NCBI RefSeq assembly: GCF_038025025.1 | Contig: NW_027117346.1 | Location: 62,001 to 126,000 of the forward strand | Direction of reading: 5' to 3' | DNA from: Phyllosticta citribraziliensis | Taxonomy: Eukaryota | Length of the DNA: 64,000 bases | Shown: piece by piece, positions 6,813-52,467 of the stretch | Layout: every line of letters starts with the position of its first letter | How positions within the stretch are numbered: position 1 is the stretch's first letter | Notes under the pieces: generated by a model | What the model was told of the DNA's origin: nothing | Seen by the model: only the letters and a program-made list of their open reading frames with translations | Databases searched by the model: none | Program-made: the position numbers and the translations under genes

Positions 6813-9046
6813 TTACGAGCAAGTGCCGGTGTAGTTGTTCACTGGCCAGTCGTAGTTTTGACTCCTATAGATCGTTAGAAAATGCCTGCTCAATAGTTTG
6901 TCTTGCAAATCATACCATTCGGTCAAGTTGTAGTTGGCATAGGGCTCGGGGTGGTTTTTGATGTACGAGGTGGTCGGGTAGCCCGGGGGATCGCAAGTCA
7001 TGATCGGATTGTCGTCGTCCTGGTAGATGCGAATGTAGTCGATGCGCATCGTCGCGGGAAGCGTCGTGGCGATTCCGGTCAGGTTGATTGCAGAGAAACT
7101 GTCGGACATGCCAAAGTTGATAACAATGGCCATGGGCTCCTCGGGCATCACTCTTTGGCCAACGTTGCCATTGGGACCAAGGGCTCGCCCGTCGAGCGTC
7201 CACATGGGTTGATCACCAACCAACCAAGTGATGTGACCCTTGGCGCCGGGGGTGTAGTCAAAGGCATACGTCTGGTACGCGTTGCCGTCGTACCAGTCGT
7301 TGTTTAGGTTGGAAAGTCCAGAAATGGCCTGCTGGTAGGGACCACCAGCATACGCGTTGACGGAGGTGATGGAGTGATCGTAGACTTCGAAGAAATCTGG
7401 GCTAATCAGCGGGTTTCTTTTGAGCGAAAAAATCAGCTTACCATAGTCCGGCTGATACCAAATGTCAAAAGGCGCGGCCTGAAAACTTTGAGATACAACT
7501 CCGATGTAGTTGCTCGCGTCCAGCGGCGAATTGCTAGCTTCGATGACGTCTATTTCGGGTGCCGAACGAGAGTTGCCGCTGCTGGGGTGGTCTTCACCAT
7601 CGCATGTGCAGGCAGGCAGCCTCATTCCTGGAAGAGTGTTGATGCCGTCGGTAGAACTCTGGTTCGGGGTGATGCCAGCATCGCACTCGTCGTGGTAACT
7701 ATACGGCCACATGCCGTCAGTGGTGGCAGCAAAGCCAGGCCGACCCAGGTTGCCCATGGCCCAGAAGCCCGGCCAGAAACCGACGGTATCTCCGCGGCCG
7801 GGCAGAGAAATGGAAGCTTCCAAGTGGCCGCCTTTGAAGCAGAGCTTGTTCCAAGACTGCAACATGCCGGAGCGGTAATCGAGGTCGTGGTTTGAAAAGG
7901 CGTCGAAACGAATGTTGAGAGTGCCATCCTTGGTCGTGACCGCGTCAGGGTCATACCACTGCCATTGTCAGTACAAATTTCTTCTGATTTGAGTGGTCGA
8001 GGTACCTCGAGATCCTGCGTCACGCCGTACCAAAAGTCCATGGCCTGGAAGTACGGGTCATCTTCGTCGTAAAAGGTACGGCCATCGGTGTTGAACTCGT
8101 CCGAAAACTGCACAAATCAGATCCGTCCAATTTGTCAATCAAGGCGTACTCACCACAAGCGACTGCTTCTTTCCAGTGTAATATGAAGTGCGCTCCCTGA
8201 CACTTTTTGGCGTATCAGGGTCAATTAGGCCATGACGGATATTCTTGAGGAGATCTTGATGGACATCGATGCACAGAGGCAGGCCGGAGCAGGGACCTTT
8301 GGCGTCGACAAAAAGCTTCTTGGCAAAAGTCCTAAGCAAGACTGAGTAAGCAAACACGCGAGTCGTCGGGTCGGGAGTCGGGCAAAACCGTACATGATTG
8401 GATAGCCGATGAAGAGCATCAACAACCCCAACGTCAGCAACAGCAGGCCTCCTACGTTGAGCGCCCCTCGCTTCGTGAAGACGTTGCAATCCCTCGGCTC
8501 CTTGTCGGACGGGTCCGGATTGTGCAGGTAATCGTCCGTCTCGACATCCTCTGGAAACAGCAGCAGGCCGGCCGAGGGCAAAATGTTGTACTTTTCCGAG
8601 ACGGTCTGCGTATTCAGCTGACTGTCGTCATCACTGCCGGCCCTCGAGGGTGAGCGCGACTCGTCAAAGGGCGAGGCGAATATGCGGCTATCACGGCTGC
8701 CCGCAGACTCGGAGCTCCAACTGGTGCGCCGCGAGCCCATTTCTGAGGGGGCGCGCAAGGCCGAGGGCGAGTCCTCATCGCGCATTCGCCTCGTCCGCGA
8801 GACGCGGGGCGGTAGCAAGAGCTCGGCGGACTCGGCGACGGTGCCCGGCTGGTTGTACAGGGACGAGGCGCCTGTAACGGCGGCGTCTGGTCTTGTTTCG
8901 AGCGTCAGGGAACGCGTCGAAATCTGCCTCACGGGGACCGGAGGGTCGGCGGCAGCGAGGGTGTCATCGCTGTCCGAGTTTAGGCGTATGTGCGGCGGGC
9001 GTGCGTGGCCGTCCTGGGGCGACGAGAGCGAGTCTGGCGACGACAT
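6813..9046 (-). CDS. KRE6: Beta-1,6-glucan synthesis-associated type II membrane protein, KRE6/SKN1 family (GH16); 5 introns
   Basis: Ser-rich cytosolic N-terminus, DDYLHNPDP motif, one TM helix, FSDEFNTDGRTFY, MLQSWNKLCFKGG, GFWPGFWAMGNLGRPG, GH16 catalytic EIDVIE, MRIDYIRIYQ. GT-AG introns join the ORF pieces in frame (e.g. 7397-7441, 6865-6915). Confidence 0.93.
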
Positions 9047-10242
9047 ATGGCGGGAGTGGGGGAATCGGCGTGGCGGTTAAAAAACGAGGGACTCAGCGAG
9101 GAGCAAGAGGCGCCGTGTGTCGGATCCAGACGGCCTGCGAGGAGCAACGGCGCGGGAAAGAGAGTGGTGGTAGATGATTTTCGGGGTTGATATGATGAGC
9201 GCGGGCGGGACGCGGAGCGCGCAGGGAGGAATGGAGGAGGGACTGAAGGGCCGCGACTGCGAATTCCGGGAATGCAGCTCGTCCAACGTGGCCGTGCGCA
9301 GCGAGTGGAGGCCAGGTCGAGGTCGAGGTCGAGGTCCAGGTGGTGAGGTGCCGTGGTGGATGGATGCGATGCAGGAGAGAGGGAGGAGAGCGGATTGAAA
9401 AGGAAAAAAGGTTTGTCTTGTCGAGGCCTGGGGCTCCGTAAGGGGGACTGGGAAGAGCGTGGGTGTTCCTGGCTCTTACGAGGGCGACATTGACAGGGTA
9501 GAGGCTGTCTTGACCGCAGAGGCAGGGTGGGCTGTGCTGGTCGTGTACACGGGCCCGGGTGGAGCAGTGCAGTGCAGTGCAGTGCAGTGTATATACAGTA
9601 CATCCCATCCACACGGACAGTGAATCAATCGATTTTCCATTGAATGCCAACGCCTACGCCAACCTCCAAGAAACGGCCGACCCCCTGCGGCGTGCCAGGC
9701 GAATCAGCGCGGGCGAGCTGCGTCAGCCATGGAGCCGTGGTGGGCAAGCAAACGCCTCCCAGCGGACGCCATCCGCCTGTGGCAGTCGACGAGGGCGATC
9801 TCCGACGCGCCGTAAAATTCACGGACCCTGTCATCTCAGCACTCAGGCACCCTCATCTCACTCTCTCAGTGTTGTCGCTCTCTGTCTGTCTGTCTTCGCT
9901 ACCTGAAGCGCGCAGCTTGGAGCGGGCCCTGGCATTGCGGTGGTGATCTGCCCCAGCCTTCGACTTGGGCCGTCCGGTGTCAGACCGCCCGATCACTGTC
10001 ACCTCTGCGTTTCATCGCCCTTGTATTGTACCACTACCAATTTCCATGCCAACTGCTCCCACCACCATGGATCCCGCTGTACAAGGCCCCAAGACTAGCC
10101 TAGCCATTACTACACACATGTACTGGACGTGCACATACATGGCCTATAACGACGCCCTCTGCATTTGACCGCTTGATAAGCCCATTGCGACTCTTGCCGC
10201 ATCCAGCATGGCTCCTTGATACCACATCATCAAGCACGCACA

Positions 10243-22734: not shown

Positions 22735-24545
22735 ATGGCCTCGCCCGTGAGCCTCCATCTGTTTCCTGCCGCCGAGCACCATGTTGACTGTGCACAAGCT
22801 AGGCATTGAGCCGTCGCTCGAATCGGTGCGCGACATTGTCGCATCATACATAGACTCGCCCAATCCTCCGAACCTCGTCCCCCTGTGCGCCTCGATTTCG
22901 GCCGAATTCTTGACGCCCACGTCCATATACCTCAAGATTGCCTCTAGGTCGGTGAGCATGCTGCAGCGTCGCCCCGGCACTTGCTGAGACGTACAAGGTC
23001 AAAGTCGAAGCTGTCGTTTCTCTTTGAGAGTGCCGCGACAACCGAGACGATTGGCAGGTATAGCTTTGTCGGCGCAGGTTAGTTGCCCGGGCAGACCATG
23101 TGCGTGCACGTCTGACGAACAAGACCCGCGACAGGTTCTCAAGACGGGACCCGGCCACGGCCCCGAGTGCGATCCTCTGCCCCTCCTCGAACAAGAGCTC
23201 GCCAAGGTCCGCGTCGCATCCATTCCGACCCTGAAGCTCCCGCCTCTGACGGGCGGCGCCATTGGCTATGTGGGATACGACTGCGTGCGATACTTTGAGC
23301 CCAAGACGGCGAGGGACATGAAGGACGTGCTCAAGGTGCCCGAGAGCTTCTTTATGCTCTACAACACCATTGTCGCCTTTGACCACTTTTTCCAGGCCGT
23401 CAAGGTCGTGACGTACATGCGCGTGCCCGAGAGCCTCGACGACTTGGACGCGGCGTACGGCGAGGCGCAGGCCGTGATTCAAGAGACGATTGCAAAGCTC
23501 AAGAGCGAGGACATTCCGCTGCCGGAGCAGCCGCCGATCCAGACGGACCTGCAGTACACGTCCAACATTGGGCGCGAGGGGTACGAGGGGCACGTCAGGA
23601 CGCTCAAGAAGCACATTGCCAAGGGCGACATTATCCAGGCAGTGCCGTCGCAGAGATTTTCGCGGCCGACGTCGCTGCACCCGTTCAACATTTACCGGCA
23701 CCTGCGGACGGTGAATCCGTCGCCGTATCTCTTCTTTGTCGACTGCGACGATTTCCAGATTGTCGGAGCCAGCCCAGAGCTGCTCGTCAAGGCGGACATG
23801 GGACGGGTCATTACTCACCCCATTGCGGGGACGGTCAAGCGAGGCAAGACTGCCGAAGAGGACGAGAAGCTGGCCGACGAGCTGCGCAGCTCGCTAAAGG
23901 ACAGGGCTGAACATGTCATGCTGGTGGACCTTGCACGCAATGACGTCAACAGGGTTTGCGACCCGCTGTCGACGCGGGTGGACCGGTTGATGGTGGTGCA
24001 AAAGTTTTCACACGTCCAGCACCTGGTCAGCGAGGTTTCTGGCGTGTTGCGTCAGGACAAGACGCGGTTCGACGCATTTCGGTCCATCTTCCCGGCAGGC
24101 ACGGTCAGCGGGGCGCCCAAGGTCAAGGCCATGGAGCTGATTGCAGAGCTCGAGCAGGAAAAGCGCGGCGTGTACGCTGGAGCGGTTGGCTACTTTGGCT
24201 ACGGCAGCGTCAACGCGGCGGGCGGCGAGGAGGAGGGGGCCATGGATACGGTGAGTGGACAGACAAGCCAAAACTAGTGGTGGGTCGGGCGGCTGACTAG
24301 GAGGACAGTGTATCGCGCTGCGGACCATGATGGTCAAGGACGGGGTGGCGTACCTCCAGGCGGGTGGCGGCATAGTCTTTGACAGCGATGCGTATGACGA
24401 GTGGATGGAGACGATGAACAAGCTCGGGGCAAACATGCAGTGCATCACGTCGGCAGAGAAGAAGCACCTGGGCGAGCAACAAGAACAGGAGGTAGGCAAC
24501 GGCGAAGCGGCGGCCAAGGCACACGTTGACCTAGCGGCGGGGTAA
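22735..24545 (+). CDS. TRP2: Anthranilate synthase component I; 4 introns
   Basis: [96 protein letters not shown]. Confidence 0.96.
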
Positions 24546-27700: not shown

Positions 27701-29095
27701 GGAAGTCGAACGTCGAAAGTCGAGAGATAGCAACAGAGAGAGCAGGAAAAATTGGCGGCGTGGAACAGTCGAAGCAAACCTCGCTCACCACCCAGGCGAG
27801 CCCGCCCACCTTCGCAGCCACCTACAGTTTCTTCCCTAGCAAAACGAGACGAGACAAGACAAGGTACCCCCCGTCTCGACCGCAGCGTTGCCGTGCATCC
27901 CGTTGAGGCGTTGGCCCATCGTCGTACCGCTGCACCGCTACCGCGCCGCCGCCGGCTTGTGCCGCGCCCGCGCCCGCGCCCGCCGTGGCTGAAGCGCGCA
28001 AGCAAGCAAGCAAATCGGTGGCGTCTTGGGCATCTAGGCGGCGTCTAGGCAGGCACACAGCACATAAGTATGTAGCGTTGATAGTGGCGCGTGGGGCGTG
28101 GGGAGCGGGGCGCACGGTGTGTGTGGCGCAGCTGGCAGAGCGGTGGTGCCCGTTGCTCGTTGGCTGATGGTTGATGGCTGGATCGAAAAAGTCTCCAGCG
28201 TGGCCGTCGTAGAGTATCGTCTGTAAGTGGCCTACCCAACCAACGTCATGGGGTTGGGTCGACGGTGGTCGACCATGGTCGAGACAATGCGGCCGTCCGC
28301 TTGCCAATTGACTTTCGGGCTGCAGCACGGTGACGTACCTTACGGCCGTCGCGAGCGCGACGGGGGCCAATGAGTGCGTGTCCGTCGCCCGTCGCGGCAC
28401 CTCAACAGGAGAGGAGAGAGGCGGGACGGCTAAGTATACAGTACAGTACACGCGTCGAAGGAGGTGGGTGGGCAGGCAGGCAGGCAGGCAGGTAGGGCTG
28501 CAAAAAGCAAAAAAGAACTCAAGGTTTCCGCGAGACGCCAGATTCAGATTCGATGCGATGTTTGGGTAAAACGCTTGTTTGATGCATGGGTCTGTCTGAC
28601 TGACTGACTGACTGACACATTTGGCACTGACCTGGTTTGCGTCAAGGTGCATTCAGGCTGCAACGGATGGTCTCGGAGACTCCGGACGGAGGACGGGTCG
28701 TGGCTTTTTAGCGCCGGGTCGACGATGAGACTTTTGGGGAATGTTCAGCTGGAATCGAGTGAGTGCGCTTGGGAGGGTGGATGCGATGCGATACGATGCC
28801 ATGTAAGGTGCTGCCACTGGTGTGTTGGTGGTGTCGAGGGCGGGTGTGACGTCGATCCTGGGCACAAGAAGCAGCGTCGCAAGCAAAACTTGACTCGTCT
28901 GTCTGGCAAAAATCGGCTCATATTCTCTGAGCAGGTGGTTGCATGAGTGGTTATCAATCAGTGAGATGAGAGCCGGACACCTTGTCCGCCCTAAACGCCA
29001 TGACTCTTGTTTGAAACTTTGCGCCGGCTCCTGGACTCTGCGTTTGGCGCTGCGTCGAAACGCTCCGTTTGTACGCTTTCTTTCCCTGCCACTGC

Positions 29096-30052
29096 CTACA
29101 TCGGCATCGGCTTCAAATGTCCTTCGTTGTCGTATCGTGCCTCTGTCATCTTCGTCAGCGCCTGTCGTACACCAATTCCACCCCGACTTACTGAAAAAGG
29201 TGTAATTCAGCGTAATCGTGTTGATGCCCCTCATATTGATATCATCGACAAACGCCGGATCAATGTAAAAAAACACGGGCATGTCGACCGTCTCGCCCTT
29301 GTTCAGCCGCTGCTCCTCGAAGCAAAAGCACTGGATCTTGCTGAAGTACTGCGCCACCTGCCCCGGCGTCACGCTGTACGTCGCCACGCCGATGATGTCC
29401 TGGTCGCCCTCGTTGGTCGCCGTGTAAAACGCCAGCGCCGTCTCGCCCGGCAGCACGCGCACCTCGCGCTGCTGCGGCGTGAATTTCCACGGCAGCACGT
29501 CCGATACGGCGCCGTTGAATGTGATGCGCAGCCGCGGCACCGTGTCGACCGGCTTGAGGCGGTCCGCTGGGTCGCCGTCGACGGAGCCGTGGGCGGCGGA
29601 CTTGATCGGCTGGCCTCCCCAGCCCGTGGTTTGGCAGATCTGCGACATGTCAGGACCAAGCGTTGGAATTGCGGGCAGAGCTATGTTGGAGAACCATTTT
29701 GTACATGGGGACCGAGCCGTAGGATAATGCGACGGTGCCGAGAATGATGCTCATGGTGTAGTACCTGGCGGAGGATCAGCACAAGCTGGTGGCAACATTG
29801 TCGAACGGGAAAGATGTACGCAAGGGACCGGTTCTTTTCCTTATACTTCTCCCGCACTTGCTCCATGGTTGGCATTTGCGGTCTGCTCTGGGAGGCGTTT
29901 TGCTGTGGCTTGCTGCTGTTCTGCATGCCCCGTCGCTGTGCTGTGGCATTGATCCGAGGAGTCGCGCGCCGAGCGCAGGCGTTGCATATCCATGGCGAAG
30001 GCGCGGAGAATGGGCGCGCTAATCTGCGCAATGTTGTCGAGGGCGGGTTCAT
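29096..30052 (-). CDS. COX11: Cytochrome c oxidase assembly copper chaperone Cox11; 3 introns
   Basis: Mitochondrial presequence-like N-terminus, TM segment with SYGSVPMYKM|ICQTTG, copper-binding KIQCFCFEEQ, DMPVFFYIDP, TLNYTFF. Confidence 0.95.
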
Positions 30053-32723
30053 GGTTGTGGTGTCGAGAAGATGGCTGAGCGAGATTCCCGTTGGTGGTGA
30101 GATCAGATCTCGCAGGGTCCGGGTGCTAGGCCGAAAATGGCTTATCGATTGGCGTGCCGATGATGCCGAAACACCGCACGTCGAGAAGCATTTTCGACAC
30201 CTTCTAACAATACCTCTTCTTCTATCTTTCCTTGGGTAAAATTTTGAAGAATTTGCCTACGTCATCCAGCTGGGCGGGAAGAGAACAGTCGAAGCCTTAT
30301 CGATGCGTGGCGTGGCGGTTCGTTGCCCTTCTTCAATGCTTGAGCTGCCGCTCTTGGAAGCTGCACTCTTCTTTTGCCCTTGCTCAGTACAGCAATACCA
30401 ACTCCATCAGTCTCATGTTGCGTCTAAATGCACGCTTTGCGTTCATCAAAGTCCCATTTTCTCTTCGAGGGCGCCGAACTACATTTTCATACTAGCATTC
30501 TTGACATTTCCCAGTCGATTTTACCCTTGATCAAACGAGCGTTGGCTGCCCAAGGCGATAGTTAATTAAGAGATTGGAGCCCTGCCAGCTAAACGCAATA
30601 AGGTAAAGAGAGGGAAAATTCACCCGAGTGAGCCCTGGTACGACGTCCGAACTGTTAGATCTGGCCGAGAGATCTTCAGCCATTGACACTGAAGAGCGCC
30701 GCGGAATAAGGGTGTTAATTCTCTACGGCCTTAATCGTCTGAGCAAGGATTGGCGGGCAGATTCGGTAGGTTCAGTCGCCAGCCAGAAATCAACATCCGC
30801 CAAAAGATGTTTGTTCTCAGCCAGTGTTGTTTGCCGTTGGCCAAAAACGAGGGATGGTGGCGTAGGTTTTACAACACTTCGCCGATTAGAAGCCACCTTG
30901 AAAGGAGTTCGGCCACAATATACCTTCTTTCGCCGCCGATCTGTCTAAGATTATGATGGCCTCAGAGATTCGAGGTCGCATGTAAAAAGCTCCGCCGCCG
31001 GAATATTGAGATTCCAGTTCGAGAGCTACATATTCAACTCACAGAGGCTATCTCAAAGCTTTCAAAAGTCCACTCACAGGCTTGCTACATTCAAAGGCAC
31101 AAAACCGCCTCTCAACCAACTCCCCGCTCGATCAGGGGCGTATGAAGCCTGTCAAGAGTTTTGCTACGTTTGAAAACGCAACTCTGCCTCTATATCAACC
31201 AAGTTTGAACAGCAAATTCATCGCTCTACCGAATTCCCGCCCGGAATACATCCACGCCAGTACCACGCCTTGCATCATTGCACCTTGTCTCGGAGAAAAC
31301 GCTACTGCAGACCAAACCGACCCCTTGCCAACTTCTACGCGCAAATTACAACTACTGCTACTGCGGATGGACCGAACAAGACGTTAGTACTGATAACAGC
31401 TAGCATACAGACCAATCAGACCGCACTTTTCGCAACTTCGAACGCAGTGAAAGTGTCGGGAAGGCGGGGAAAAGGCAGCAAAGGGGGGAGCGAAGTTAGC
31501 GTCCCAAACAACTGAGCCAGAGCTTTACTGCAAAGAGGAAGCGCAACACTAGCGCCGCGATTGCTCCAAGAGCGATGAAGGCTAGCTTGAGTGTTTGGAG
31601 ATTGGCAGAAAAGCAGCGCCAAAAGCGGCGGCGCGTAGATATCCCGGCTTTTCATTTTTTCGCCAGTCTTTCCATCGCGCCGCGAAGAGGCATTCAAGCG
31701 ATGCGCGTGGCCGACACGTAGGGTTGCGTTGCCAGTGCCCGTGTTTGTGGAGGAAGACAGACACATACCACTGAAGTCCCCTCCGGCACCCACTGAAGCG
31801 GCTCTAAGAACTAGTGGTATGGTTTGAGTTTAGAATCTGGATGACCTACATGCCCACTTCCTCGCTCATAAACCTGTGTCTATCACAACGTCAGAGCACT
31901 GCATCAACAAGCCGGCCAGTACAGCCAGAGTGCAACCAACCAACGTGATGCCCTCCTCTCCTTCTCTTCCCCTCCTTCCCTCTCCTCCTCTGTCTTCCAA
32001 CCAACCAAGCAACGACACAAAACCCAAACGTCAAGTCGTCGACCAAGAACGCATAAGCAAAACCCTGCAACGCGCCCTACCAACAACCCATTCCAGCATC
32101 GACCAAGAGGACACGGAGAGACGCAGAGTCGGGACGATGCCCCAGCGATGAAGGAAGGAAGAGCCAGAGCGGGAGGAGCAAGAAGATTTGTCCGATGCCC
32201 ACAAATATCGAAATCGTGCTCAATGCATGCCGTAGCGTCCTCTCATCCGCCCGTCATTCTGTCGCAAGGAAATACGCGCGTAAGACGTCAATCCGTCACT
32301 CATTCCATCAGGTACATAGGTACGTGTCGACCTCGACCTCCCGCACATGCATGCATGTCACAAAAGGACTCAAAAAAGGCGAATCCCTTAGAGGGATGAG
32401 AGAGGCAAAGGAGAGGGATAAGACGGGAGAAGAAAAGCGAGTGAGTAAGGTAGTAGACGCTCATCGCTGCTGTCAAAGAAAACCAAGTCATGTCATCCTT
32501 TCGCCTTAGTAGTGGTGTTCCCCAACTGCGCCGACCCGCCCATTCGTCCCAGCAAATCAGAAAAGACTGATGATGACAACAACAACCGTGTGATGTGATG
32601 CGCTAGCCAGCCGTGTAATGGTTTTCCGCTCTTTTGCAAAGCCCACCCGCAGACCAGAACAAGCCTCATTGACCCCAAGGGAGAGAAAGAAGGGGCGAGA
32701 AAAAAAAAATAAAAGAAAAGGTC

Positions 32724-34086
32724 TCAATCACTGCGCAACATGCTCTCGACAAGGTCGCCCAGCGGGCCCCAAAAGTCCCTGCTGCCCTGGCTGAGCTGGT
32801 GCTCCTCGACAAACAAGACATAGTGCTTGAAGCTGGTGTTGAGGTGGGGCTCGAGGCCGAGCGCGATGATGACGGGGTAGTGGTGGCAGTAGATGTGCGC
32901 GTAGACGCGGTACAAGCGCTTGAAGAGCTGGCGGATGAGCGACGGAAACTGCTTGGGGAACTCGACGCCGACGCGCGGCGGGAACATGGCCTCGTTGTCC
33001 ACGTTGGCCTGCACCCACGCCATCAGGTGCTCAATGTACTCGGGCGCCGACATCTTGGTCGGCCGCTTGTAGTTCTCCGAGTCTTGCCACAGGTACTCGA
33101 ACTCGTCCGTCGCTTTCATCTCCGGGCAGCTCTGCGGCGAGCAGAATTCCGTTATCGAGCCGTAGATGAGGTTGATTTGGTTGTAAAAGTCGACCACTAT
33201 ATGACTCGTTCGTTAGCCTTGTTTTGCTGCGCCGGCGGTCGGCCTTGTTGCTATAAATATCTTATAGCTCGCTTCCAAAAATGGTCGAAGGTGATGCTTC
33301 GCGAATATACTCACCATTGACAGCCAACCACTCGCCGATGTCCTCGCCTTCGGGCAGCTGCACCGCCTTCCTCAAGCTTCCGCTACCCAGCGTCGCCTCT
33401 GCAAACTGCTTCAGTTGCCACGAGCTGGTTCCTCGCTTGCCCTCTTTGGCCCGGAATGCCGCCGTGCCGCCATTGCCCGCTCGAGCAACCTTGCTGTTAC
33501 TGCTATCATCATGACGACCGTTAGCTCTCTGTTTCCCCTTGTAGCGGCTCATGCGAAATTTTTGTTGTGGAGGGGGCTGGTTCGGCATGTTTTGCTGGTA
33601 TCGCGCTGGCGCCGCTGGGGCAGGTGGCCTTCGTGCCCACGCGGCGTGGCTCTTGGGCGGGTCCGGGTACTCCGGGATGTGATGGTGGCCGTCGTAGCCC
33701 ATGCCCGCCTGAGAGGGCGCCAGAAGAGTGTGGACGCTGCTCCGCAGGGCCTGGTCAAATTCCCTTTGCAATGGACTCGTGTACGCGCCGCCGGGCAGAG
33801 CTGGCGGGGTAAATCCCAAGTGGGCGCGGTGCCAGTAGGCGTCGTCCCAGGAGCCAGCGTCTCGTCGAACCGGTACGTAGTGTTGTGGCGCCAAACAGTC
33901 GCAAGGGTCCGCATCCTGCGAACAAAGGTCGTGGGGCAGGCATGGGATAGGCGCCGGATTTGGAAATGTGAACACGGGCGAGAGCGGCCGTGGTGTTGAG
34001 GGAAAGGATGGAGATGTGGTGCGGGAAGAGTGCGAAGGAGACGGGGGGCAGATTTCAGCGTACATTGTTGTGATGAAAGAAGTCAT
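32724..34086 (-). CDS. MOB1: Mob1 NDR-kinase activator (SIN/MEN pathway); exons 34086-34064, ~33499-33315, 33196-32724
   Basis: MTSFITTI|NSK..., [52 protein letters not shown]...[25 protein letters not shown]. Confidence 0.95.
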
Positions 34087-34979
34087 GACTGAGCAGTCGG
34101 AGCCGGTGGGAGGCTTTATGCGCAAAGAAAAGCTTCGAAGGTTGTCGGGACTAGGGTTGCAGCAGCATTCCAGAGGTTAGCTTTAGCGTGTACGGGAATG
34201 AAGGGGAGGAGGGACGAGGTACCGCCGAAGGGACGCATGCACGGGCGCAAGTTGTGGGACGACGGTGGGGGTTTCGAGGAGCAAAGGGAAAGCGGACGAG
34301 TAGCCTGACGGGAAGGGCAGAGGTTGCAGTGGTGGTCGCTGAGGGAGCAGGAGGAAATGGTGTTGGTGACGGGAGTCGAGCTGAGCTGCGAGGTAAACAA
34401 CGCTAGTCGGCCTGTGGTGGGGGCAACCTGGCAGGCGATCCGCCCGCACGTGCGCCTCCGCTTTGATCTGCCTCCTGGCATTCTTTTCTCTTCTTCTTCA
34501 ACACGCCTTTGTTTGCCTTTTGCCCTTTTGGACGCCGTTGATGACTCGGCATGGTGTCCTCACTTGGACCAGCACTCCAATCACCGCACCGCGAGACCCC
34601 ATCTTCGAGAAACGCGCCACTGGACAACAACCATGGTTCACCGACCCTCGATTCACCCATCACGTGCAGTCATACAAAGCTCTAGCATAGGATTATCAAT
34701 TTGACACTCGTGCAGCGTAGGTCCACTACTAATAATGCAACTGTCCGTCTTCCATCCAAGCAAAACCCTTCCTGAGCAAGTCCAGCGAGCCATTCGCGGG
34801 GCCTGGTGCAGCAAAGGGGGTATCACACGTCATACAGAATCAAAAGAAGCTCAAAAGAAGGATTAAGAGAAGAGAGAATGTAGAGGCAAGCCGTAGGCCA
34901 GCTAAAGAGACGCCGGGTAGTCTCCATCGTCGAGCGGCTCTGGCCCGAAAGGGAGCCACTTCGTTGGGCTACCAACCGA

Positions 34980-37141
34980 TCACGACCCGCCGGACTCGCT
35001 CTTCCGCTCCGCCGCCGTCGCAGTGGGCTTGTCCGACGCGGGCGATGCGCGGATCGTGTCGTCCTGGCCGAGATCCTCCGCGTGCGCAGCGTCAAGCGGC
35101 TCGGCGTCTTCCATCTGGTACAGGATCTCAGGCTGCACGTTCTGCCTGAAGATGTAGCGCCTGAAGAAGTAGAAGAATTGGCGACCGCCCCATGCAGCGT
35201 GCTTGGAAGTTGGCACGCTGAAGACCTGGTCCAATTCTTCCAGCGTCTTTCCTTTGGTCTCGGGCAGGAAAAACAGCACCAGGAAGAAACCGACGACGTT
35301 CCAGGCAGCGTACCAACCGAAGGCGCCTTGAGGCTTGAACGCCTTTTGAAGCGAGGGCCATGTGATGGACAGGACGAAGTTGAAGAACCAGGTGGTCGCC
35401 GTCGCGAGCGACATGCCGTACGCACGCACGTAAAGCGGATACGCCTCGGCTGAGTAGGTAAAAGGAACAGGACCTTCACCGGGCGAATACACGATTCCGA
35501 AAAGGTAGATGCCCAAAGCGATGAGGCCAACACGCACCCTGAGCGATTCGCCTTCCTGGCTGATGAAGAAGCACATGCCAGTAAAGAGCAGGAAAATGGC
35601 CATCAAGGGGAACGTCGTCAAGAGGAGATTCCGCCGACCGAATGTATCGATCGTGTAGATGGCGGGAATGGCGAAGAGGAAGTTGATGATACCAAAGCCG
35701 AGCGAGGCCGCGAGCGCCGACTGCGCGCTGAACCCAGAGTCTTGGAAGATGGACGACGAGTAGTATGCAATGACGTTGACACCGCAAAACTTGACAAGTC
35801 AGTACAGGGACAAAGCGTACAACCTTCACACGTACCTGCTGCATGAACATGACAATCTCAGAAGCCAGCATGGCTCGTCGATTTCGCGGCACAGTGACCA
35901 ACTCCAGGAGCTTGCTTTGACCGATTTTCATACTCTCCTCGGCCCTCAAGAGCTCGGACATGTAGAATTGGTCGCGAGCAGCCTGAATTTTGGAATATCG
36001 GAGGCGACACATGGCGTGATAGGCTGCGGCGTGGCGACCGTTGCTCATGTACCAACGAGGGGATTCCGGACACAAGAAGACGAAGAAACAGACGACGACG
36101 GCTGGAAGCATGGCAGAAGCCATCATCAAACGCCAGTTCAGACCGGTTGCCACGCTGGTATCCTCGACGCTGTAGAGCGCAAGATCGGCGACATAACCAA
36201 GCATGATACCAAAGGCAGTCCACTGTACATGTGTCAGTAACAATTCCTCGCTGCTTTTGTTCTAAACTGACCATTTGCCACTGCATCACCAACGCGCCGC
36301 GGATGGCCGGAGGCGTGCATTCTGCGGCGTAAATGGGCACAGTTGCCGACTTGGGACCAATTCCGAATCCGAGCGCAAAACGAGCAACGAACATGTGCCA
36401 CCAGGTGTTGACAAAGCCCTGCCAAAAGCAAGCAATCGCCGAGAAGAGACAAGTGATGAAGATGGTGCCGCGACGACCAAACCAGTGGTTGTACGGGACA
36501 GTCAGCCAACAGCCGACAAAGGCGCAGCAGAGGTAAGGTGCCGAGTTGGTCAACCCAGTCAACCACGTGGACCGCTCGTCGCCATTGTCGATTCCGAATT
36601 GCGGGGTGTAGAAGAGCTGGGCACCGTTGACAACCGTCTCATCTACGACTCGTCAGTATACGCCACCCTTTATGCTTAAACACATGCTGGTGTCGATCGT
36701 GCTCGTACCCATTCCTTGGACAGCGGCGCAGATGGAGCAGCAGACAATAACGACGTAGAGAGTTCGCGGCTGACTCCACTTGCTCGCAAACTCCTTGTAC
36801 AAAATTTCTTGCTCTTGATCAGTTATGGAGTCAGAACCGAGACGGTCGTAGGCGAGCGGATTTTGCGCGAGGACAGCGCCGAGCTCGAAGGCGCGAATGT
36901 CCTCGGGCTCAGCCAAGGCGTGCTGCAGAGCGTAGTCACGGCCCTTCTTCTCCAGCTGTGCGCGCGTGTAGCCCGCAAGCGGGTTGGCCAATTTGGCATT
37001 GGCGTTTCGGCGGGCACGCTCAGCAGCAGACATTGCAGCCGTGGACACGGATACGTTGCGCTGGGCTTCGGGCTTGGGATTGATTCCAGCATCCTCATGG
37101 TAGGCAACTTCGCCCTCGGACGAGTGCTTCTCGCCGGACAT
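34980..37141 (-). CDS. MFS sugar porter (myo-inositol/polyol/pentose transporter-like); 3 introns
   Basis: AAVQGMDETVVNGA, FGRRG loop, VPIYAAECTPPAIRGALV, PESPRW, QQFCGVNVIAYY, DTFGRR, GEGPVPFTYSAEAYPL, PETKGKTLEEL. Confidence 0.93.
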
Positions 37142-47243: not shown

Positions 47244-49233
47244 GACTCCGGAGTGGTGGTTGGCCTCGCAATCTTCTAGTGTTTCTGGATGAAGTTGGTT
47301 CCGTGGGAGTGGGAAACGGGAATTTCGCTGCAAAGTTCAGAATCATCGAGGGAGTACACTACTTTTACCAGAATCAATGCCTAGCAGCTAAACAAGTGCA
47401 CCATGATTTTTCTGGTGGCGTTTAGCTATCCAGATCGTTACCCGGAAACTGCTGGATGATGTCGACGAGCGCTCAGCTAGGACAAGCACATTTCGGTCTT
47501 CCACATAGTCCAGGAACGCCGTCATTTGCGGCAAGCTGCTTTTTGAGCTTGAAGCTTTCCGTGGTGGAAATGTAATACAATCCCGCAGGGGGGGGAGTGC
47601 AGTGGAGTATTCTTGCGTGTGTTTAGATCTGAGTGTGAATCAAGGGATGTCACTGACATAAATCGACTGGTCCAGGTCATCCATGGTGTCATCAGACCGA
47701 CCAAATCGTAACCGACTACCGCAAACGGCCTTTTTCAAGAGCAGCAAGGAAGCAACTGCCGCGACTTGCCACAATTCGAGCGGCTAGAAGTTGGTAAAAG
47801 GAGAAACCCGCGATCCTGAGATTTCCAGTACTTCGATCCAACGGCACATGGCGTACTCGGAGTTGCGTCCATGTGCCGGTTGCCCTTTTGGGAGACTTTT
47901 CCGGTACGTTCGTAGGCTCACGGTATGTCCTTCACTGTCAGTGACAAACTTCCGATCGAGGAGAATGGTACAAGAAGTGTCTTGATTCTTTCAGCGCGTC
48001 TTATGAGTCGGTGTCAGAATACTGGAGAATCTCGGGGATTGTGAAGGACAAAATGCTGAGTTGATGTTTCCACTAAGCATAACACAGAGGCAAAGGCTCA
48101 CGTCGCAAATGGGCACGCGATTCAAGTTTGCGGGTGCGATCACGGCGAAGTCGCTGTTGAGAGAGGCAGCAAGACACCATCTCGTGGCTCTCCAACTCGA
48201 TGACCTCGTGGTGACAGAACGTAATGACTCGAGTGCCTGGTGAGAGGATTCGTTTCAGTATGCCCAGGGGCAATCAGCAGCAATGACGTCAATCGAGGGC
48301 AGACCCCTGGTAGCCGGATCATCAGAGTTCCGCTGCATGTCGTCCGTGAATACGCTGGAATATGCTGTGCACTCTGAGCAAAAGCAAATGGAATATCACA
48401 GATGCATCGAGGTATTTAGAACATGTCCGAGTCCTGGCACCTTGGTGTCGGCGATCGTGTCCTGTAGCAGACATGAAACGTCATCAAGGCATGGCGCTTG
48501 GCATCAAAGGAAAAGACAGCATAGCGACGAGTGAACGACAGGTTACAGATGGCAGCAACGCTTTTGGTGGGTGACGAGCGAAGCAGGGTGTCTCGGCTAT
48601 AGTCCTAGGGTCCGGTTGTGCGCCAGTTGGTTGGAGAAGTGTGCCGGTACCGCTCGAGGGGGCTTATTCGCAGCCTTGAATAGCCGTCACGAAAAGACTG
48701 GAGCAGAGAGTTCAAAACAATCGGACGGCCGGAAGGATTAGGAAGAGAGGCGGGTAAACGTAAAAGTGGACAGCGACGCGGGATTTTTTCGGAGACGCTC
48801 GTCTTGAGAGCAAAAGGAGTACAAAGGGCGGTCGAGGCGCGGCCGGCACGGGCAGCGGGTGGTCTGGAAAGGAGGGCGATGGGAGTGGAACAGGGCGCAG
48901 CGTAGAGGTCGACTCGCCTGGAGACTCGCGCAGGTGATGGAGTCGTGGTGTTGTCGAGGGCGACGTCGGCCACACAGAGGTGCGGCATTTAGCTTGACTG
49001 CCTCTTGTCGCCTCGCCAATGACGGTTTCTGCTGACATGCGACAGATCGCACTAAGCCCGTTTCGGCGGCGACCCCAGAATGCCCCGTGCGTATGAACGA
49101 ATGCCGCGAAACTTGTCCGCCATCACTCTCACTGCCAACTTCTCCACCACCGGAGCTTCAACTCTCCCCTCTCTCCCTCTTCTCCCTTTGATGAATTGTT
49201 AATCTCGTGCCGAGGCACCCTCCTCCCACCATC

Positions 49234-52200
49234 ATGCTGCGCAACACCATCCGACAGTGTAGCAGCCGTCTGGCCGCCGCCCGCCCAAGCTTGGCCGCAA
49301 ACTCGTCTCTCGCCTCAAAACGCAGAGCTCTCGCCGTCGCCTCTCAGCAATGTCACCGCCGCTCCTACGCCGTGTCCGCAGAGGACACGAGCAAAGGCGT
49401 CGTGCGTATTGCCTCCCCCGCCTCTCCCAGGCTTCCCGCTGACTCTCCGCAGGACCCGAGCGATTCCTTCCTCCAGGGCAACACCGCCAACTATGTCGAT
49501 GAAATGTACATGCAGTGGAAACGCGACCCCGAAAGCGTCCACGTCTCGTGGCAAGTCTACTTCCGCAACATGGAAGAGGGCGAAATGCCCGTCTCGCAAG
49601 CCTTCCAGCCGCCCCCCACCATTGTCCCCGCTCCCATCGGCGGCCTGCCCGCCTTCACCACCCCTGGCTTAGGCATGGACGGCCAGTCCACCGAAGTCAT
49701 GAAGCACTTGAAGGTCCAGTTGCTCGTCCGCGCTTACCAGGCGCGTGGCCACCACAAGGCCAAGATCGACCCCTTGGGCATCCGTGGCGAGGCCGTCCAG
49801 TTTGGTTACAGCAAGCCTAAGGAGCTCGAGCTCGAGCACTACAACTTTAGTGAAAAGGACCTGGATGAGGAGTTTACGCTGGGACCTGGCATCTTGCCCA
49901 AGTTCAAGGCCGAGGGCCGGGAGAAAATGACTTTGCGCGAAATCATTTCGGCGTGTGAGAGAATCTACTGCGGCTCGTACGGTGTCGAATATATCCACAT
50001 TCCCGACAGGGAACAGTGTGACTGGCTTCGTGAGCGCCTCGAGGTCCCCCAGCCCTACAAGTACTCTGTCGACGAGAAGCGCCGAGTCCTCGACCGCTTG
50101 ATCTGGGGTTCTAGCTTCGAGTCCTTCTTGGCCACAAAGTACCCCAACGACAAGCGCTTTGGTCTCGAGGGCGGTGAGACGCTGATTCCCGGCATGAAGG
50201 CTTTGATTGACCGCAGCGTCGACTACGGTGTTAAGGACATTGTCATTGGTATGCCCCACCGCGGTCGTCTCAACGTTCTCTCCAACGTCGTCCGTAAGCC
50301 CAACGAGTCCATCTTTAGCGAGTTTGCTGGCTCTGCCGATCCCGCCGACGAAGGCTCCGGTGACGTCAAGTACCATCTGGGCATGAACTTTGAGCGTCCT
50401 ACGCCTTCCGGTAAGCGCGTTCAGCTTTCTCTCGTTGCCAACCCCTCCCACTTGGAGGCCGAGGACCCCGTCGTGCTCGGCAAGACCCGTGCCATTCTCC
50501 ACTACAACAATGACGAACAGGAGGCCAAGACGGCCATGGGCGTCCTGCTCCACGGTGATGCCGCCTTTGCTGGTCAGGGTGTTGTGTACGAGACCATGGG
50601 ATTCCACGCTTTGCCCAAGTACCACACCGGCGGTACTATCCACATTGTCGTCAACAACCAAATTGGTTTCACCACCGACCCTCGCTTTGCTCGTTCCACT
50701 CCCTACTGCTCCGACATTGCCAAGGCCATCGACGCACCCGTCTTCCACGTCAACGGCGACGACGCCGAGGCGTTCAACTTTGTCTGCCAGATGGCTGCCG
50801 ACTGGCGCGCCAAGTTCCACAAGGATGTGGTCATCGACATGGTGTGCTACCGTAAGCAAGGTCACAACGAGACGGATCAGCCTTTTTTCACGCAGCCCCT
50901 GATGTACAAGCGCATTTCTCAGCACGAGCCGGCACTGAGCAAGTACGTCAAGCAGCTCTTGGACGAGGGAACCTTCACAAAGGAGGACATTGACGAGCAC
51001 AAGGCTTGGGTCTGGGGAATGCTCGAGGAGAGCTTCGCTCGGAGCAAGGACTACCAACCCACGGCCAAGGAATGGCTGACCTCTGCATGGAACGGCTTCA
51101 AGTCTCCCAAGGAGCTTGCTACTGAGATACTTCCTCACTTGCCCACTGCCGTTGACGAGAACATCGCCAAGCAGGTCGGCCAGAAGATTAGCAGCGCCCC
51201 CGAGGGCTTTACCGTTCACAAGAACCTCAAGCGCATTTTGCAGAACCGTTCCAAGACTGTCACTGATGGCAAGAACATCGACATGGCCACCGCCGAGGCT
51301 TTGGCTTTTGGTACCCTCTGCTTGGAGGGCCACCACGTCCGTGTTTCCGGCCAGGATGTTGAGCGTGGTACCTTTTCGCAACGTCATGCCGTTCTCCACG
51401 ACCAGGAGAATGAGGGAACCTACACTCCTCTGGCCGACTTGAGCCCGGACCAAGGAACCTTTGTCATTTCCAACTCGTCGCTGAGTGAATTTGGCGTGTA
51501 AGTAGAGTTCCGGCTATTCGTGCGACTGATCATGTGCTGACCTTCTCACAGCCTCGGTTTTGAGTACGGCTACTCCCTCTCTTCTCCCAACGCATTGGTC
51601 ATTTGGGAGGCTCAGTTTGGTGACTTTGCCAACAACGCGCAATGTATCATTGACCAGTTCATCGCATCCGGTGAAGTCAAGTGGCTCCAGCGCAGCGGTC
51701 TCGTCATGTCGCTTCCTCACGGTTACGATGGTCAGGGCCCCGAGCACTCTTCTGGACGCATGGAGCGTTACCTGCAACTCTGCAACGAGGACCCGCGCAT
51801 CTTCCCCAGCCCCGAGAAACTCGAGCGCCAGCACCAGGACTGCAACATGCAGGTCGCCTACCTCACCAAGCCTTCCAACATGTTCCACATCCTTCGTCGC
51901 CAGATGAACCGCCAGTTCCGCAAGCCTCTCATTCTCTTCTTCTCCAAGTCCCTTCTCCGCCACCCGATGGCTCGCTCCAGCATTGAGGAGTTTACTGGCG
52001 ACTCGCACTTTGAGTGGTTGGTTCCTGACCCCGCACACGAGTCTGGGGAGATTGTGCCCCACGAGCAGATTAAGCGCGTCGTCCTCTGCACTGGTCAAGT
52101 TTATGCTGCCCTTGTCCAGCACCGCAAGGACAACAACATCAACGACGTTGCAATCACCCGCATCGAGCAGTTGCACCCCTTCCCGTGGGCACAGCTCAGG

Positions 52201-52467
52201 GAGAACCTTGACAGCTACCCCAACGCCGAGAACATTGTTTGGGCCCAGGAGGAGCCTCTCAACGCCGGTGCCTGGAGCTTTACCCAGCCGCGCATTGAGA
52301 CTCTCCTGAACCAGACCGAGCACCACAACCGCAGGCATGTCCTCTACGCTGGCCGCAACCCCAGCGCATCCGTTGCCACTGGTCTGAAGAGCACGCATAA
52401 GAAGGAGGAGTTGGACCTGCTGCGGGATGCTTTTGAGGTTTCGCAAGATAAGCTCAAGGGAGAGTAA
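49234..52467 (+). CDS. KGD1: Mitochondrial 2-oxoglutarate dehydrogenase E1; introns 49403-49453 and ~51498-51551
   Basis: Presequence MLRNTIRQC..., [31 protein letters not shown]-binding [46 protein letters not shown]. Confidence 0.97.

Follow-up and report, generated by a model that had tools for sequence, protein, structure and literature searches.

Septation and mitotic exit are driven by the Dbf2/Sid2-type kinase, for which Mob1 is an essential co-activator. In filamentous fungi, hyphal septation, conidiation and ascospore formation are under the control of the Dbf2-Mob1 module. The present analysis concerns the MOB1 gene of Phyllosticta citribraziliensis, which is located in a stretch of 64,000 nucleotides (nt) of contig NW_027117346.1 (assembly GCF_038025025.1, positions 62,001 to 126,000 of the forward strand), hereafter called the window and numbered from its first letter. 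The first intron of this gene (intron 1) is a true spliceosomal intron, with GT..AG ends, a branch point-like box and removal in RNA, and the spliced form of 227 amino acids (aa) is the main product. We consider it likely that the same intron is also a conserved coding segment, i.e., an exitron or translated retained intron that gives a minor long isoform, and the gene probably makes a rarer, longer Mob1 protein as well. A candidate exitron or long Mob1 isoform had been put forward in a first-pass annotation made from the letters of the window, and this interpretation is supported by the RNA and comparative evidence presented here. The MOB1 intron of Saccharomyces cerevisiae is probably also located near codon 7.

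The concept of the exitron was reportedly introduced by Marquez and colleagues in 2015 for plants and animals. Like exitrons, intron 1 of MOB1 lies inside an annotated coding exon, has canonical splice signals, a length divisible by three (3n) and no stop, and its counterparts in other lineages exhibit constraint at the protein level, while its splicing removes a disordered segment in frame. Unlike in exitrons, the spliced form of MOB1 is the canonical, ancestral-looking and majority form, and in this window the intron lacks the codon usage of an exon. No exitron in a fungal gene was found among the matches listed in our literature search, as judged by titles and the beginning of abstracts, and no description of the present MOB1 event was retrieved from a literature coverage that leaves subscription journals largely outside.

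The nearest fungal precedent is the PTC7 gene of S. cerevisiae and its relatives, which contains a 3n, stop-free 5' intron that is retained and translated (PMC7491326, describing Juneau et al., 2009). Judging by the available part of that article, PTC7 and MOB1 share an intron near the 5' end, its 3n length without an in-frame stop, spliced and unspliced RNAs for two proteins (the longer one being putative for MOB1) that differ by an internal N-terminal insert, and an open frame that is conserved in some species while a stop has been gained in others. However, the insert of PTC7 forms a short transmembrane helix that has been shown to affect localisation, whereas that of MOB1 comprises 187 disordered residues and is a candidate coding segment. 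Furthermore, the PTC7 case belongs to the Saccharomycetaceae, whereas that of MOB1 spans the Pezizomycotina, with retention of approximately 7% by contig depth. MOB1 has no occurrence in the text of PMC7491326.

Regarding the protein, the accessible part of a study on mouse MOB1B describes that the SN strand (residues 5-9), a basic linker and the Switch helix autoinhibit kinase binding, and that this autoinhibition is lifted by phosphorylation of Thr12 and Thr35 (PMC4917820). According to an alignment to a non-Pezizomycotina locus (L038), the insert falls in the homologous N-terminal region, the seven residues of exon 1 match the place of the SN strand, and fungal exon 2 follows the mouse order with a basic linker and then the AEATLGSG segment. 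In contrast, that part of the source describes no comparable insert in animal MOB1. In Fusarium graminearum, FgDBF2 and FgMOB1 undergo stop-loss adenosine-to-inosine (A-to-I) editing (PMC13123824). As far as the excerpt of that article goes, both cases concern an extended, disordered isoform generated at the RNA level in the Dbf2-Mob1 module, but the Fusarium case involves Sordariomycetes and a C-terminal extension by stop-codon editing, whereas in Phyllosticta it would be an N-terminal insertion by intron retention. Finally, retention of the 5' intron of S. cerevisiae MOB1 varies with RAP1 level (preprint PMC12026737); unlike for the Phyllosticta intron, no coding claim is made for the yeast intron in the portion of the preprint consulted.

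Splicing of intron 1 and the unspliced RNA

Contigs of four public runs were placed on positions 32200-34700 of the window. One of the runs (X1) is from the same species, with 10 of its 11 contigs being at least 99% alike, while the other three (X5, X6 and X7) are RNA-seq of a relative, 90-95% similar. X1 was taken as RNA because some of its contigs are spliced and none covers intron 2. A joint from 33502 to 34064, which skips 561 nt with GT..AG on the gene strand, was found in all four runs. The TAG of a tandem TAG/CAG acceptor is therefore used, and the intron measures 561 nt and not the 564 nt of the first-pass annotation, whose multiple of three nevertheless stands. Exon 1 (MTSFITT-AT), the GTACGC donor at 34063, the GCTAAC box near 33520 and the tandem acceptor were all located as it had described them. 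Its description of the intron as several times longer than the others in the window holds for the only introns compared, namely the 118-nt intron 2 and a 72-nt intron in the 5' untranslated region (UTR). The parts of the gene, whose ATG is at 34086, are the following:

34223..34352, minus strand: 5' UTR exon, the furthest-5' part covered, by contigs of the relative (X5, X6 and partly X7) that join 34223 to 34150; uncovered in X1
34151..34222, minus strand: 5' UTR intron, 72 nt, GT..AG; joint 34150 to 34223 in X5, X6 and X7 only
34064..34150, minus strand: exon 1, 5' UTR plus 23 coding nt (MTSFITT + AT), phase 2
33503..34063, minus strand: intron 1, candidate exitron, 561 nt, GT..AG, 3n, stop-free, with a 187-aa Pro/Ala/Ser-rich insert
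34058..34063, minus strand: 5' splice site GTACGC, whose G completes the Met codon straddling the boundary
33964..34011, minus strand: motif 1, 16 residues (long-form residues 26-41), aligning to FPaKPKPLxPVFTF of Pleosporales and others
33787..33876, minus strand: Botryosphaeriales-specific block of 30 residues, near-identical in the protein models P0003-P0006 and P0122
33742..33783, minus strand: motif 2, 14 residues, start of a predicted helix, conserved as YxSPLQRxGEALR
33520..33525, minus strand: branch-point-like GCTAAC, 18 nt upstream of the TAG acceptor
33500..33505, minus strand: tandem acceptor, TAG at 33505-33503 (RNA-supported) and CAG at 33502-33500
33315..33502, minus strand: exon 2, with the basic linker, the Thr-containing N-terminal regulatory region and the start of the Mob1 domain (RNA joints, Pfam)
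33197..33314, minus strand: intron 2, 118 nt, GTGAGT donor, in-frame stops; joint 33196 to 33315 in X1 and also in X5-X7
32724..33196, minus strand: coding part of exon 3, Mob1/phocein domain to the stop codon (Pfam, end of the open reading frame)

The 227 aa encoded by the spliced mRNA have the layout of a canonical Mob1. Exon 3 carries the match to the Pfam family PF03637 (Mob1/phocein; 198.7 bits against a cut-off of 27, E = 9.5e-59), with profile positions 1-28 being carried by exon 2, and residues 189-414 of the long form are 91% identical to Botryosphaeriaceae Mob1. With respect to the acceptor, which is of the NAGNAG type, use of the CAG would remove one Ser; the contigs show the TAG only.

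In X1, the spliced contig has a word depth of 6137. An unspliced contig of 619 nt (33475-34093) runs through exon 2, intron 1 and exon 1 without any difference and at a depth of 460. An unspliced RNA species, of the kind that the first-pass annotation had suggested looking for, is thus present in a run of the same species, and its share is about 7% of spliced plus unspliced, a rough value from contig depths in one run and one condition. Intron 2 has a depth of 0 in all four runs, as has the region upstream of 34131 in X1, and DNA carry-over is therefore unlikely as the source of the unspliced contig, although coverage holes carry no proof by themselves. An internal transcription start, also raised in the first-pass annotation, was ruled out as its source, since the contig extends into exon 1.

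Open frame and codon-level constraint

Over 564 nt the Mob1 frame contains no stop, as had been claimed from the letters, and all 187 intron codons are open in it, while the other five frames contain 6, 1, 7, 4 and 1 stops. The stop-to-stop open reading frame (ORF) was found to extend over 33262..34176, in place of the 33262..34125 given earlier. Among 5000 dinucleotide shuffles, the Mob1 frame was stop-free at a frequency of 0.021 (mean 3.6 stops) and any sense frame at 0.063, values that have to be multiplied by 1/3 for the 3n length and that concern an intron chosen after reading the window. Given that the stretch is C-rich and generally stop-poor, the open frame of this single intron stands out without settling the matter on its own. 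It could be argued that this is an ordinary intron, open owing to its composition, and that the long Mob1 models are gene-finder errors copied between annotations. Two other frames with one stop each, the 6% of shuffles with an open sense frame and an overlapping antisense ORF would fit such an argument, as would the insert itself, for which no Pfam family and no usable match in an ESM Atlas search were found. The antisense ORF (234 aa, 33295-33999, plus strand) runs across the intron, belongs to no Pfam family and in all likelihood results from the scarcity of stops in this stretch.

Raw metagenome DNA was employed for the comparison across lineages, because gene finders may prefer or copy long models. 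Of 80 metagenome loci encoding Mob1 relatives, 58 had an exon-2 anchor and 38 of these also a recognisable exon 1; the 20 remaining anchored loci, with no pattern-matching exon 1 or with the contig end reached, were excluded. The 38 analysable loci correspond to 31 distinct sequences, which were merged to 28 lineages. Exon 1 was in frame with exon 2 in 23 of the 28 lineages (9.3 expected, binomial p = 1.5e-7), and a stop-free path was present in 18; the number predicted from shuffles is 1.2 overall, or 3.1 once the frame is taken as given. The orthologous introns, in which frequent stops or frameshifts had been named as a counter-indication, are thus mostly open. The introns measure between 75 and 561 nt, with hardly any two of the same length, which indicates that many independent indels have preserved the frame. 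In addition, one locus (L013) is an intron-less full coding contig. Taken together with the conserved splicing signals and the spliced contigs, this suggests that the short and the long Mob1 product both appear to be ancestral to several classes.

The main selection test relied on seven non-overlapping pairs, aligned as plain DNA in a frame-blind manner and restricted to the intron interior, the first 10 nt and the last ~45 nt being left out as splice signals. Codon-level conservation, another check suggested in the first-pass annotation, was found in these other lineages. Mismatches in the intron interior were distributed 148:121:266 over codon positions 1:2:3 (chi-square 66.7, p = 3e-15), compared with 26:3:144 in exon 2, and each gap in the intron was either 3n or part of a compensating pair. 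Using the GY codon model in IQ-TREE, the ratio of nonsynonymous to synonymous rates (omega) was 0.19 for eight Chaetothyriales-like sequences over 54 gap-free codons, with twice the log-likelihood difference (2dlnL) to omega = 1 being 75.5. In a Mycosphaerellales-like group 2dlnL was 131.7, while its omega of 0.04 is unreliable because synonymous divergence is saturated. Omega for exon 2 was 0.003-0.017. Pairwise NG86 dN/dS estimates were considered only secondary, since protein-guided alignments favour matching residues. Between L021 and L023, divergence was 0.096 in the intron interior, against 0.07-0.085 in the exons and 0.15-0.18 in intron 2 and upstream, which places the interior midway from exons to neutral-looking DNA. 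The pattern is that of a putatively translated, loosely constrained and disordered segment. The frame and openness in DNA that is independent of gene models, the third-position excess in frame-blind alignments, the omega of 0.19 and the recurrence of peptide motifs across classes all contradict an ordinary intron with copied annotation errors, and that explanation is largely refuted; we regard it as very improbable.

A further question is whether the conservation serves the RNA. The GTNNGT donor directly after the AT of exon 1 and the YAG acceptor just before N[AP]R codons were found in all 28 lineages, open or broken, with the GT and the boundary Met being there by construction, as the search pattern required ATGT; a CTRAY box lies 13-21 nt upstream of the acceptor in most lineages. 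In protein models, which are independent of the DNA pattern, the boundary Met is followed by F, S, Y, L or W. Part of the peptide conservation is in fact splice signal, as M-[FSY]-V at the boundary is a reflection of the GTNNGT donor, while the branch point and the pyrimidine tract fall within the final ~15 intron codons. One could therefore suppose selection on splicing enhancers or silencers, on a structured RNA or on a hosted small RNA, the more so as the 'peptides' of the last ~45 nt (ANT/ANG, LLSSLFS) are branch point, pyrimidine tract and acceptor. However, a search of Rfam over 32000-35000 with E up to 1 gave no match in the intron and one weak chance match elsewhere, and the intron RNA folds no better than shuffles (z +0.88). 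Moreover, selection on RNA fails to predict 3n indels, openness over poorly conserved stretches and an interior third-position excess, and we give it hardly any credence. A hosted small nucleolar RNA (snoRNA) was considered as well and had no Rfam match.

Protein models with the insert and evidence against a long form

The only public model found for the locus (P0002, 'Mob1/phocein [Phyllosticta citribraziliensis]', 414 aa) is 100% identical to the intron peptide and represents the read-through, its sequence being exon 1, intron 1, exon 2 and exon 3. As the spliced form predominates in RNA, this GenBank model corresponds to the minor and not to the main transcript, and the annotation should carry both the 227-aa and the 414-aa form. 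A word-indexed search with the intron peptide returned P0002 alone among 515 candidates, which reflects a limit of sensitivity, since an exhaustive search and direct alignment found relatives. The exhaustive phmmer search with the 188-aa intron peptide against 1.84 billion representatives gave two matches, P0122 (8.8e-31, 45% identity over residues 1-182) and P0005 of Lasiodiplodia (1.5e-28).

The best 120 Mob1 clusters from a search with the Mob1 part were also compared. In 29 of them at least 190 residues precede AEATLG, against 41 in the short form; these clusters are all Dothideomycetes-named or unnamed and include Diplodia, Lasiodiplodia, Macrophomina, Botryosphaeria and many Pleosporales. 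Of the 120 clusters, 41 open with the exon-1 peptide and then continue into the intron. Models of Eurotiales, Chaetothyriales and Lecanoromycetes have a shorter insert of ~60 residues at the equivalent place, and short spliced models occur too, in Neofusicoccum, Fulvia, Delitschia (a cluster of 103 members), Trichodelitschia and Microthyrium. A long isoform would explain the differences of 40-190 residues among Mob1 models of sister species (227 versus ~400 aa in Dothideomycetes).

Two blocks are common to the inserts, FPxKPKPLxPVFTFxQSxSC and xYxSPLQRxGEALR, and forms related to motif 1 were detected in Chaetothyriales-, Lecanoromycetes- and Leotiomycetes-type sequences. Run against all 1331 six-frame ORFs of the window, a hidden Markov model (HMM) built from 24 non-Botryosphaeriales inserts matched only that of MOB1, through these two motifs (E = 2e-6; next best 0.75). 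The H-x-G-F-x-P-P-x-L-x-G stretch, which the first-pass annotation had mentioned for other long models, does occur as HLGYTPP[AT]LPGG in those of Diplodia, Lasiodiplodia, Macrophomina and Botryosphaeria, and corresponds to the 30-residue Botryosphaeriales block. AlphaFold2 (AF2) predicted a helix at residues 105-122 with a predicted local distance difference test (pLDDT) of 60-71, in a model that is otherwise poor (mean pLDDT 49.9, alignment of 31 rows). A complex prediction of insert residues 9-130 with Mob1 residues 196-414 scored 0.00, a value with no bearing either way.

Some variation outside the Dothideomycetes was also observed. Leotiomycete-type sequences (L040/L041, L068, P0082, P0090, P0101 and P0104) have a shorter open insert with KVLPPVCTL and ATY[VM]SP motifs. 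A Eurotiomycete-like locus (L079/L080, on contigs of 403 kb and 84 kb) contains two in-frame intron stops, yet the 3n length and remnants of the motifs are still there. In many Sordariomycete-type loci a stop follows within ~25 codons of exon 2, and the long form seems to have decayed.

A number of observations weigh against a translated long form in Phyllosticta. The retention of ~7% is lower than the 10% of junction reads used for PTC7, according to the available part of the respective article (PMC7491326), and the unspliced contig, being blind to the state of intron 2, may represent unspliced precursor. None of 95 insert-bearing ORFs from metagenomes and Logan was a transcript that had retained intron 1 but lost intron 2, and three transcript-like contigs from other lineages are all fully spliced short forms. 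Codon usage in the intron has a log-likelihood ratio (LLR) per codon of -0.056, which falls among the non-coding controls (-0.7 to 0.04) and well below the 0.89 +/- 0.16 of Pfam-verified coding windows, while GC content at third codon positions (GC3) is 0.65 in the intron versus 0.78 in coding sequence; the odd amino-acid make-up (Pro 17.6%; Pro/Ser/Ala-rich) may account for part of this non-coding-like usage, but not for all of it. The 28 lineages are related, so that counts over them are not fully independent, and 10 of the 28 carry stops or have lost the frame. A Pleosporales-like lineage from two metagenomes (L001/L002) has a TAA at the conserved Gln (CAG) of FTFAQSQSC; this TAA could reflect a recent loss, vary between strains or be recoded. 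Three related loci with a GC content of 0.65-0.66 (L054, L055 and L056) are out of frame, differently in each, with the motifs in pieces, so that either the long form has genuinely decayed there or low-complexity runs were misassembled. In addition, the codon-level evidence derives from Chaetothyriales-, Mycosphaerellales- and Pleosporales-like lineages and one unplaced lineage, i.e., from outside the Botryosphaeriales. Finally, the Phyllosticta-like model P0126, which comes from a close relative and shares 79% identity across the final 68 residues, begins within the insert, and the upstream part of the insert may be closed in its source.

These points lead to an alternative in which the segment was coding once and still is in other orders, while in Phyllosticta it persists as an ordinary constitutive intron whose frame has not decayed, the 7% signal being precursor RNA and the 414-aa GenBank model an annotation artefact. 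Besides the start of P0126 within the insert, such a relic would agree with ~93% of the signal being spliced, with the non-coding-like codon usage and GC3, with the loss of the ORF in other lineages that kept the splice sites, and with the poor conservation of the C-terminal third of the insert even within Botryosphaeriales. However, its 187 codons are still stop-free (P 0.02), identity to Lasiodiplodia is 62% over 105 residues and that to P0122 is 45% over the whole insert, and the P0002 cluster at 90% identity contains 12 member sequences. We consider the relic unlikely and prefer an intron that is also translated on retention. As a separate observation on L001/L002, the remaining 182 intron codons of this lineage (locus coordinates ~154-790) are open and conserved.

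Possible role of the long isoform

At the RNA level, the default is the spliced mRNA encoding the 227-aa Mob1. Since intron 1 is 3n and stop-free, transcripts retaining it would encode a Mob1 of 414 aa, in which 187 mostly disordered, proline-rich residues would stand directly after the first seven. The insertion site in the N-terminal region is the one proposed in the first-pass annotation, while its size of ~188 aa becomes 187 aa. The unspliced mRNA would be expected to escape nonsense-mediated decay (NMD) and then to be translated; escape is suggested by the lack of a premature stop, unlike in intron 2, which contains stops and has no cover. Translation, function and regulation of the long form are what we infer here.

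Exon 1 provides no more than the initial seven residues and the basic linker stands at the start of exon 2, so that the insert would split the autoinhibitory module. By analogy with mouse MOB1B, it would separate the equivalent of the N-terminal strand from the module of basic linker, phospho-threonine and Switch helix, so that autoinhibition may be weakened or re-tuned. Both motifs conserved across classes, namely the PxxP-rich box PKPLxPVFTF and the predicted helix with YxSPLQRxxxALR, might act as added docking or phosphorylation sites. More tentatively, and with rather less confidence than in the coding segment itself, intron 1 could represent an ancient splice switch of the Pezizomycotina, in which retention uncouples the strand from the autoinhibitory module and adds the PxxP and helix docking motifs, giving a stage-specific kinase activator. 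We also infer that splicing may be switched in a condition-dependent manner, with the spliced form as the main product.

Should this prove true, the network of septation and mitotic exit would gain a second, stage-specific form of its kinase activator, and a retained-intron isoform spanning classes would add a level of regulation that is new to this much-studied pathway. Deeply conserved splicing events that diversify proteins are few in fungi, and this would be one of them. Moreover, hundreds of seemingly 'inconsistent' fungal Mob1 gene models would then correspond to two real isoforms.

Leader and neighbouring genes

The spliced leader of MOB1 contains no in-frame upstream ATG. A 16-codon upstream ORF starting at ~34238 spans the junction of the 5'-leader intron in the spliced leader. 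According to Pfam matches on long ORFs, a sugar/major facilitator superfamily (MFS) transporter (34983-36652, minus strand) is located just upstream of MOB1. The other neighbouring genes of the window encode Cox11 (28656-29750, minus strand), anthranilate synthase component I (22988-24274, plus strand), SKN1/KRE6 (6816-9076, minus strand) and 2-oxoglutarate dehydrogenase E1 (49195-52464, plus strand).

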